A DNA stretch of 64,000 nucleotides from Candidatus Babeliales bacterium. Lineage in GTDB: Bacteria > Babelota > Babeliae > Babelales > JACPOV01. Position numbers and translations under genes: made by a program. The first letter of the stretch is position 1, and every line of letters starts with the position of its first letter. The notes under the pieces were generated by a model. The model searched no databases. It saw only the letters and a list, made by a program, of their open reading frames with translations, and was not told where the DNA came from. Below are positions 4,013 to 4,224 of the stretch, piece by piece. Location: NCBI GenBank assembly GCA_050250855.1, contig JBFWNW010000003.1:1-64000 (forward strand), in the 5' to 3' direction.

Positions 4013-4042
4013 TTGCATTATGCGCTCTGGATCAATTATATT
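4013..4042 (+). promoter_or_regulatory. Sigma70-like promoter of candidate ncRNA (TTGCAT-N18-TATATT)
   Basis: Shares CAAACTATTGC and 18-bp spacing with the promoter at 21048-21077. Confidence 0.55.
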
Positions 4043-4046
4043 GAGA

Positions 4047-4224
4047 GCATGATATAAAATTTACCTGAAATAAACATTCGTGTTTACGTAAGGTATAGCT
4101 AAGGCTGGTTATGGAAACATGGTTGGCCTTAGATAAAATTATCACATTGCAAAACTTTCGGGTTTTTCAATGATGATTAACGAAGGTTGAGTATGTGAAG
4201 AGCATGTTTGGCCTTCGTTTTTTT
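4047..4224 (+). ncRNA. Unassigned structured ncRNA (four hairpins, last is an intrinsic terminator)
   Basis: Two UUCG and one GAAA tetraloop; G.U pairs that work only on the + strand; U-tract at 4218-4224; no credible ORF. Confidence 0.65.

Follow-up and report, generated by a model that had tools for sequence, protein, structure and literature searches.

In enterobacteria, DapZ and MicL are small RNAs (sRNAs) encoded at the 3′ end of an mRNA, each with a promoter of its own and a terminator that it shares with that mRNA. CsrB, RsmY and RsmZ consist of repeated hairpin modules with purine-rich loops, and they too have their own promoter and terminator. 6S RNA, about 180 nt long, folds into a closing stem, a central bubble and a terminal stem. 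For the Dependentiae we know of no post-transcriptional regulator, and those parts of the literature that are open to full-text searching yielded nothing on small RNAs of Dependentiae or Babeliales.

The element described here comes from a Babeliales genome (1.22 Mb in 11 contigs, 95% complete, 36% GC), of which we analysed a stretch of 64,000 nt that we call the window; coordinates are window positions throughout. The element consists of a promoter-like site, a single-stranded leader and four hairpins, H1 to H4. Like DapZ and MicL, it lies directly behind a coding gene with a promoter-like site just after the stop codon, its terminator is the only one and is common to the upstream operon, and a single-stranded 5′ region stands ahead of stable hairpins. 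It has, however, no relation to either RNA in sequence or structure, its promoter-like site lies after the stop codon and not within the coding sequence, and no Hfq gene was found: neither Hfq (PF17209) nor ProQ (PF04352) gave a match at E ≤ 1 in this 95%-complete genome. With CsrB, RsmY and RsmZ the element has in common repeated hairpin modules, purine-rich loops, and a putative promoter and terminator of its own. It differs from CsrB and RsmZ in having two modules only, with GNRA-type tetraloops on stems of 15–18 bp where those RNAs have GGA in small hexaloops, and in matching no Rfam family. GGA occurs across the closing pair and loop in H2 of the window and in H2 and H4 of the related genome G001 described below, and not in H4 of the window or in the hairpin of a third genome, G002. 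Nor does any CsrA exceed the cut-off in the genome, the best match to PF02599 scoring 14.4 bits against a cut-off of 27 and lying inside a 612-aa frame. 6S RNA is alike in size (~180 nt) and in having its own promoter-like site and terminator; the element differs from it by forming separate local hairpins and by its patchy distribution, and RF00013 has no match at E ≤ 10 in the region or in the genome.

A wider comparison with Rfam 15 by cmscan gave, at the gathering threshold, a tRNA at 46273-46343 as the sole match in the window. At E ≤ 10, the region 3900-4450 produced 12 matches far below gathering, the best at 19.2 bits versus 86. The genes for SRP RNA, RNase P RNA and tmRNA are located elsewhere in the genome, which bears out the preliminary description, made from the sequence alone, in its view that the element is none of these. 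Intrinsic terminators and palindromic repeats offer another likeness, as H4 is a canonical terminator, H2 is like a copy of it and a repeat adjoins the element; the element differs from them in being single-copy and strand-specific and in its conserved leader, tetraloops and promoter-like site. Two further assignments were tried and rejected. A riboswitch or leader has no same-strand downstream gene in the window or in G002, and the gene in G001 has its own promoter; a ToxI-like type III antitoxin would suit two tandem modules, but no same-strand gene follows the terminator.

Locus, promoter-like site and fold

The element occupies a gap of 435 nt between the stop codons of two convergent genes (at 3956 and 4392), with no ORF of at least 40 aa in the gap before 4311. 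Upstream lies an α/β-hydrolase gene (2919-3956, plus strand; Peptidase_S9/Abhydrolase matches), the final member of a plus-strand gene run that includes a pterin dehydratase gene and a MazG-like gene. The convergent gene (4392-6143, minus strand) encodes a 583-aa protein without a Pfam match, beyond which lies a gene with a Pfam match to the NADAR domain (6153-7442). The promoter-like site and the four hairpins fit in the first 270 nt of the gap. Between the terminator of the RNA and the end of the convergent gene there is a composite dispersed palindromic repeat (4229-4395), which folds equally on both strands (about −57 kcal/mol) and is a separate element outside the RNA. BLAST finds 39 matches to this repeat, which are spread over the genome on either strand and include one immediately ahead of the tmRNA gene; set against these 39 matches, the single copy of our element led us to reject its assignment to REP- or MITE-like dispersed repeats. 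The repeat is missing at the syntenic position in G001.

A −35-like hexamer, TTGCAT (4013-4018, plus strand), was read from the sequence and is followed after 18 nt by a −10-like hexamer, TATATT (4037-4042). At the aligned places, G001 has an identical −35 hexamer and TATCAT with the same 18-nt spacing, and G002 has TTGTTT and, after 16 nt, a weak TATACA. All three genomes have an A-run upstream of the −35 hexamer. A consensus promoter scan of the window missed the site, as TTGCAT agrees with TTGACA in only three of six positions. The tmRNA gene of the same genome has TTGACA-17-TACTAT, which indicates use of σ70-type promoters. Transcription from the promoter-like site may be inferred from its sequence and conservation, with a predicted start at ~4049.

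The RNA would begin with a single-stranded, purine- and A-rich leader, GCAUGAUAUAAAAUU (4047-4061, plus strand), which is unpaired in the centroid fold and aligns with the leaders of G001 and G002. A copy of this leader at 80% (repeat family D4) is found at 4126-4140, such that the motif GAUAUAAAAUU recurs ahead of H3. The 5′ part of the D4 repeat overlaps the end of H2, and its 3′ part is formed by the first 8 bases (4133-4140) of an A/U-rich linker (4133-4141, plus strand) between H2 and H3.

Folding of 4045-4228 on the plus strand with RNAfold gave a minimum free energy of −56.0 kcal/mol (z −5.79), a value that 0 of 200 shuffles equalled, versus only −38.8 kcal/mol for the opposite strand. 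All four hairpins, which the preliminary description had placed behind TTGCAT-N18-TATATT at 4013-4042, were reproduced on the plus strand. H1 (4062-4095) has 5 bp, a 4 × 4 internal loop, 6 bp and a UUCG loop. H2 (4099-4132) is a G·U-rich hairpin whose 15-bp stem, GAAA loop and five G·U pairs agree, in the fold and in the pair table, with what had been read by eye. H3 (4142-4176, core 4145-4172) is a bulged hairpin with a UUCG loop. H4 with its U-run spans 4179-4226, and its hairpin (4179-4219), proposed earlier to be a terminator with a G·U-rich stem and U-tract, is listed as such by the terminator scan: it has 18 pairs, of which 5 are G-C, followed by TTTTTTT. The earlier argument that the G·U pairs favour an RNA on the plus strand is upheld by the energies of the two strands, and the asymmetry recurs in G001 and G002. 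Two finer details of the preliminary description were lost. The GAAA/CGUA internal loop of H1, thought to resemble loop E, has no counterpart in G001 or G002, and a helix closing a three-way junction is absent from both the minimum-free-energy and the centroid folds and has no conserved counterpart.

The terminator scan found none between the hydrolase stop codon (3956) and H4, so H4 must also end the transcript of the upstream hydrolase operon; in the window and in G001 the hydrolase gene and the RNA have no terminator between them, and the element is therefore also the 3′ UTR of the operon. Short ORFs compared by reading among the window, G001 and G002 include none that is conserved inside the RNA.

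Among 2594 intergenic strand-windows of 180 nt folded genome-wide, the element ranks 23rd after GC correction, and the better-ranked windows mostly fold equally on both strands, as DNA palindromes do. The element is single-copy in the genome (one match), and the motif of its long hairpins occurs only at H2 and H4. Contigs from four DNA sequencing runs covered almost none of the RNA and showed no variant. Five other windows (C4:169156, C4:42526, C4:106066, C4:89776 and C1:431641) reach about −70 kcal/mol on both strands at ~35% GC, stronger than the RNA, and are probably long DNA palindromes or repeats. Five more intergenic windows are asymmetric between strands (C4:3601, C4:50851, C4:6211, C2:141751 and C3:128476) and could be further RNAs.

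Homologues and their distribution

The RNA was found in three genomes of one Babeliales family (three of its ten genomes) belonging to two genera, in each case behind the same α/β-hydrolase gene. G001, the only other species of the genus, has its homologue directly behind the hydrolase orthologue. The hydrolases of the window and G001 are 68% identical as proteins, and 35 of 99 four-fold sites (35%) are identical, from which we conclude that unconstrained sequence is saturated between the two species. The order in G001 is the promoter-like site, H1, H2, H3, H4 and a U-run. Its H1 is longer than that of the window and has three segments and a UUCG loop; H2 is nearly unchanged, with a loop of GAGA instead of GAAA; H3 differs in the sequence of its stem and keeps its shape and UUCG loop; and H4 is again nearly unchanged. 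H2, H4 and the promoter-like site have thus kept their sequence despite saturated neutral divergence. The G001 element folds to −80.4 kcal/mol (z −7.3), as against −44.5 kcal/mol for its opposite strand.

Base pairs were compared for H2, H3 and H4. In H2, 13 of 15 pairs are invariant and the other two have changed on both sides. Nine of the 14 pairs of H3 have changed on both sides, with every cell paired. The 18 pairs of H4 comprise 13 that are invariant, three changed on one side, one changed on both sides and one whose sole departure is a cell left unpaired in one sequence. When the 3′ partners are shifted by one to three columns, pairing falls from the observed 99% to 32–46%. We stress that these counts come from an alignment fitted to the structure model, which favours structure, although G001 folded independently gives the same H2, H3 and H4, and that they leave out both helices of H1, as the model misaligned the H1 of the window within the longer H1 of G001. 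The leader and H1 alone are not significantly similar between the window and G001 (723 of 2000 shuffles reach the score). The H1 of the window is shortened, and the membership of the window element in the family rests on the promoter-like site and H2 to H4.

The genes downstream of the RNA differ among all three genomes. In G001 (contig C18; L032, 2981-3801), two plus-strand genes, encoding 130 and 142 aa, stand between the RNA terminator and the orthologue of the 583-aa protein. They have a TTGATA-17-TACTAT promoter of their own, as read from the sequence, and the 142-aa product may resemble S24/LexA/UmuD-type peptidases, an impression gained from reading the DNA only. Both genes are missing at this place in the window, which makes the stretch behind the RNA gene a variable site. 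The 583-aa protein is 46% identical to one protein of G001, and its matches in G004 are only partial; used as a query, it detected no homologue in G002, G003 or G005. The preliminary description had found no downstream gene, which holds for the window and fails for G001, where the two genes follow the terminator. It had also attached meaning to the convergence of the RNA on the pair of NADAR and 583-aa genes. This arrangement is not conserved, as the two plus-strand genes intervene in G001 and G002 has no detectable 583-aa homologue.

G002 belongs to another genus of the same family. Its homologue was recovered with R3, a hairpin model built from H2 and H4 of both species (E 7.9e-4), ~136 nt behind a hydrolase orthologue of 49% identity that has a strong terminator of its own directly after the stop codon, ahead of the RNA. 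A weak promoter-like site and a purine-rich leader come first, then a long hairpin of three segments capped by UUCG, one long G·U-rich hairpin of diverged sequence with a GUUA loop, and a U-run; this version of the RNA has ~130 nt. The fold reaches −42.2 kcal/mol (z −5.3), compared with −22.0 kcal/mol (z −1.95) for the other strand. Ordinary AAGGC...GCCUU terminators of relatives also score with R3, so the assignment of G002 depends on synteny and on the similarity of leader and H1. Leader and H1 of G001 and G002 align with a z of 4.76, a score that none of 2000 shuffles and none of 2000 random genomic segments attained; between G002 and the window the corresponding alignment is weak, its score being attained by 63 of 2000 shuffles and 15 of 2000 random segments. 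The three genomes, too few for a statistical test of covariation, contain five long hairpins, in which all 73 cells are paired and 6 of 15 pairs have changed on both sides; one U·G pair is invariant in all five, and an adjoining G·U pair is present in four.

The long hairpins are also similar to one another within a single RNA. H2 and H4 align with z values of 6.5 in the window, 4.9 in G001 and 6.75 across species, each unmatched by any of 1000 mononucleotide shuffles, and the first half of the RNA (4045-4135) aligns with the second (4124-4222) at z 7.0. On this evidence H2 and H4 are paralogues. Their paralogy, the half-to-half alignment and the repeat of the leader together show the RNA to be a tandem duplication of one module, made up of an A-rich leader, an irregular UUCG hairpin and a long G·U-rich hairpin; paralogy and duplication are new findings of this analysis. 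There is one module in G002 and two in the window and G001, where the second long hairpin is the terminator.

BLASTN, covariance models and DNA patterns recovered no homologue from the other 258 Dependentiae genomes searched. The sensitivity of these searches was low: H3 illustrates the rapid turnover of the stems, and the search with strict filters missed even G002. The hydrolase orthologues of G003, G004 and G005 have either no room or no RNA behind them. BLASTN of 4000-4240 against 41 genomes gave short AT-rich matches everywhere at E ≤ 1, and only G001 fell below 1e-3. One of its matches there (contig C18) is the syntenic H4; another (C9) is in coding-looking sequence and was put down to chance. 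Five weak BLAST matches in the range of H2 all scored below 8 bits with the full model and filters off. A single-sequence model (R1) matched 3 of 151 genomes, namely the genome under study, G001 and G093 (E 0.12), the last without H2. A two-sequence model (R2), in which the H1 of G001 was misaligned, matched 19 of 40 genomes at E ≤ 5. Only the genome under study and G001 are real, the best other match (G031, E 0.0038) covering the terminator part only. R3 with strict filters matched 4 of 151 genomes and proved insensitive in missing G002; R3 matches in G030, G019, G007, G009 and contig C13 of G001 are plain terminators or coding sequence.

Pattern searches led to the same result. The exact H2 pattern matched twice among contigs of GTDB genomes, in G001 and in a Pseudoalteromonas that has no R1 match and was taken as chance. 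Two matches in JGI metagenome contigs were likewise taken as chance, since one falls within a 794-aa ORF and the sequence around the other is GC-rich and looks coding. A loose hairpin pattern run on 261 genomes could not be distinguished from chance: controls gave fewer hits in many genomes, and the hits listed were unlike the hairpin; 2 of its 13 matches in G001 are real. A pattern for the 3′ side of H1, one base off for G002, gave with two mismatches no real match and no excess over the control in the 261 genomes, and BLASTN of the G002 RNA against the same 261 returned its self-match only. Judged by these sequences, the RNA family is small and fast-evolving. The recovery of homologues in G001 and G002 with compensatory changes bears out the preliminary description in its reading of the hairpins as RNA.

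Competing explanations

From these observations, we hypothesize that the element is a single-copy noncoding RNA gene of a lineage-restricted family whose product probably acts in trans; leaving the mechanism loose, we give this explanation as a whole a probability of about 0.5. That a real functional RNA is encoded here we regard as very probable. Trans action, which we infer from the layout of the sequence, is somewhat favoured. The gene would specify an RNA of ~178 nt (~4049-4226, plus strand) with its own σ70-type promoter, ending at the intrinsic terminator H4. That it would be made independently is favoured by the conserved promoter elements, the terminator that precedes the RNA in G002 and the variable downstream genes. 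As a regulatory RNA acting in trans, it would base-pair with targets through its A-rich 5′ leader and the repeat of that leader between H2 and H3, with the hairpins supplying stability and termination. Pairing through the leader is a tentative proposal. In its favour, many sRNAs have a broadly similar layout; against it, the genome contains no long antisense match to the element at E ≤ 1. We rank it slightly ahead of binding by a protein; the data do not decide between the two. A role in stability does not explain why the sequences of H2 and H4 are conserved, and this conservation fits recognition by a protein better than it fits pairing of the leader.

As a protein-binding decoy or scaffold, the RNA would offer two near-identical G·U-rich hairpins, each bound by one copy of an RNA-binding protein, with duplication doubling the capacity. 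The architecture of repeated modules agrees with this, as does the retention of sequence in H2 and H4 far beyond the needs of pairing while H3 drifts freely. The two hairpins also stay alike within and across species, keep the U·G pair in five of five long hairpins and the adjoining G·U in four of five, and in the four long hairpins of the two-module RNAs carry loops of GAAA, GAGA, GAAA and GAAGA. There is, however, no candidate partner, given that Hfq and ProQ are unmatched and CsrA falls below its cut-off; the long hairpin of G002 is capped by GUUA and has diverged in sequence; the role of terminator may by itself constrain H4; and similar AAGGC...GCCUU hairpins are ordinary terminators in relatives. 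We consider protein binding unlikely, and more so its specific form in which each long hairpin, with its invariant U·G/G·U step and GNRA loop, captures one copy of a Dependentiae regulator and the number of modules (one in G002, two in the window) sets the capacity for titration. An improbable role in cis is that of a 3′ UTR of the hydrolase operon, whose hairpins terminate the mRNA and protect it from 3′ exonucleases, the promoter being coincidental. The promoter match is indeed weak, the element follows the hydrolase orthologue in three of three genomes, and no terminator intervenes between the hydrolase stop codon and H4 (by the scan in the window and by eye in G001). In G002, however, a strong terminator comes right after the hydrolase stop codon, ahead of the RNA, and the hydrolase orthologues of G003, G004 and G005 lack a tail of this kind. 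Protective hairpins, moreover, need no conserved sequence, tetraloops or single-stranded leader, and the −35 hexamer, the spacing and the −10 hexamer are conserved against a saturated background.

The remaining explanations are far less probable than those above. In an orphaned leader or attenuator whose controlled genes have been lost here, the 3′ arm of H2 would pair with the 5′ arm of H4 as an anti-terminator. The likeness of H2 and H4 does permit this alternative 2:3 pairing at 12 of 13 positions (by reading), and G001 has two same-strand genes after H4, but these genes have the TTGATA-17-TACTAT promoter, two of the three genomes lack a same-strand downstream gene, and the single long hairpin of G002 allows no alternative pairing. 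In addition, a change from A-U to G-C in H2 of G001 is compensated within H2, where cross pairing would get a C·A mismatch. Equally improbable is that there is no RNA and that the hairpins represent palindromic DNA, a repeat element or a chance occurrence. Palindromic repeats abound in the intergenic regions of this genome, and one of them abuts the element at 4229-4395; against this, the element is single-copy, its fold is specific to one strand in each of the three genomes owing to the G·U pairs, and compensatory changes are present. Least credible is a very divergent 6S RNA. The size of ~180 nt would suit it and RF00013 is unmatched in the genome at E ≤ 10, but covariation supports a fold of four separate hairpins and not a rod with a large central bubble, the G002 version has ~130 nt and one module, and of the ten genomes of the family only three yielded the RNA.

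Significance

The preliminary description had proposed a novel class of trans-acting noncoding RNA. A stand-alone structured RNA without an Rfam match stands, and "class" overstates a family of three genomes. The family is new in the sense of having no Rfam match and is of an ordinary kind, a lineage-restricted bacterial sRNA gene. If the long hairpins were each to capture a regulator, a circuit like Csr/Rsm would have been assembled out of unrelated parts, in a phylum whose members are obligate parasites of protists. With three genomes the reach of the finding is limited, and its value is that of a good test case for metatranscriptomics, not of a surprise to the field. Given how few genomes carry the RNA, its comparative support is unusually clean, and comparing the genera reveals the gain of a module. 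The RNA would be a first candidate regulatory RNA for this uncultivated phylum of protist parasites.
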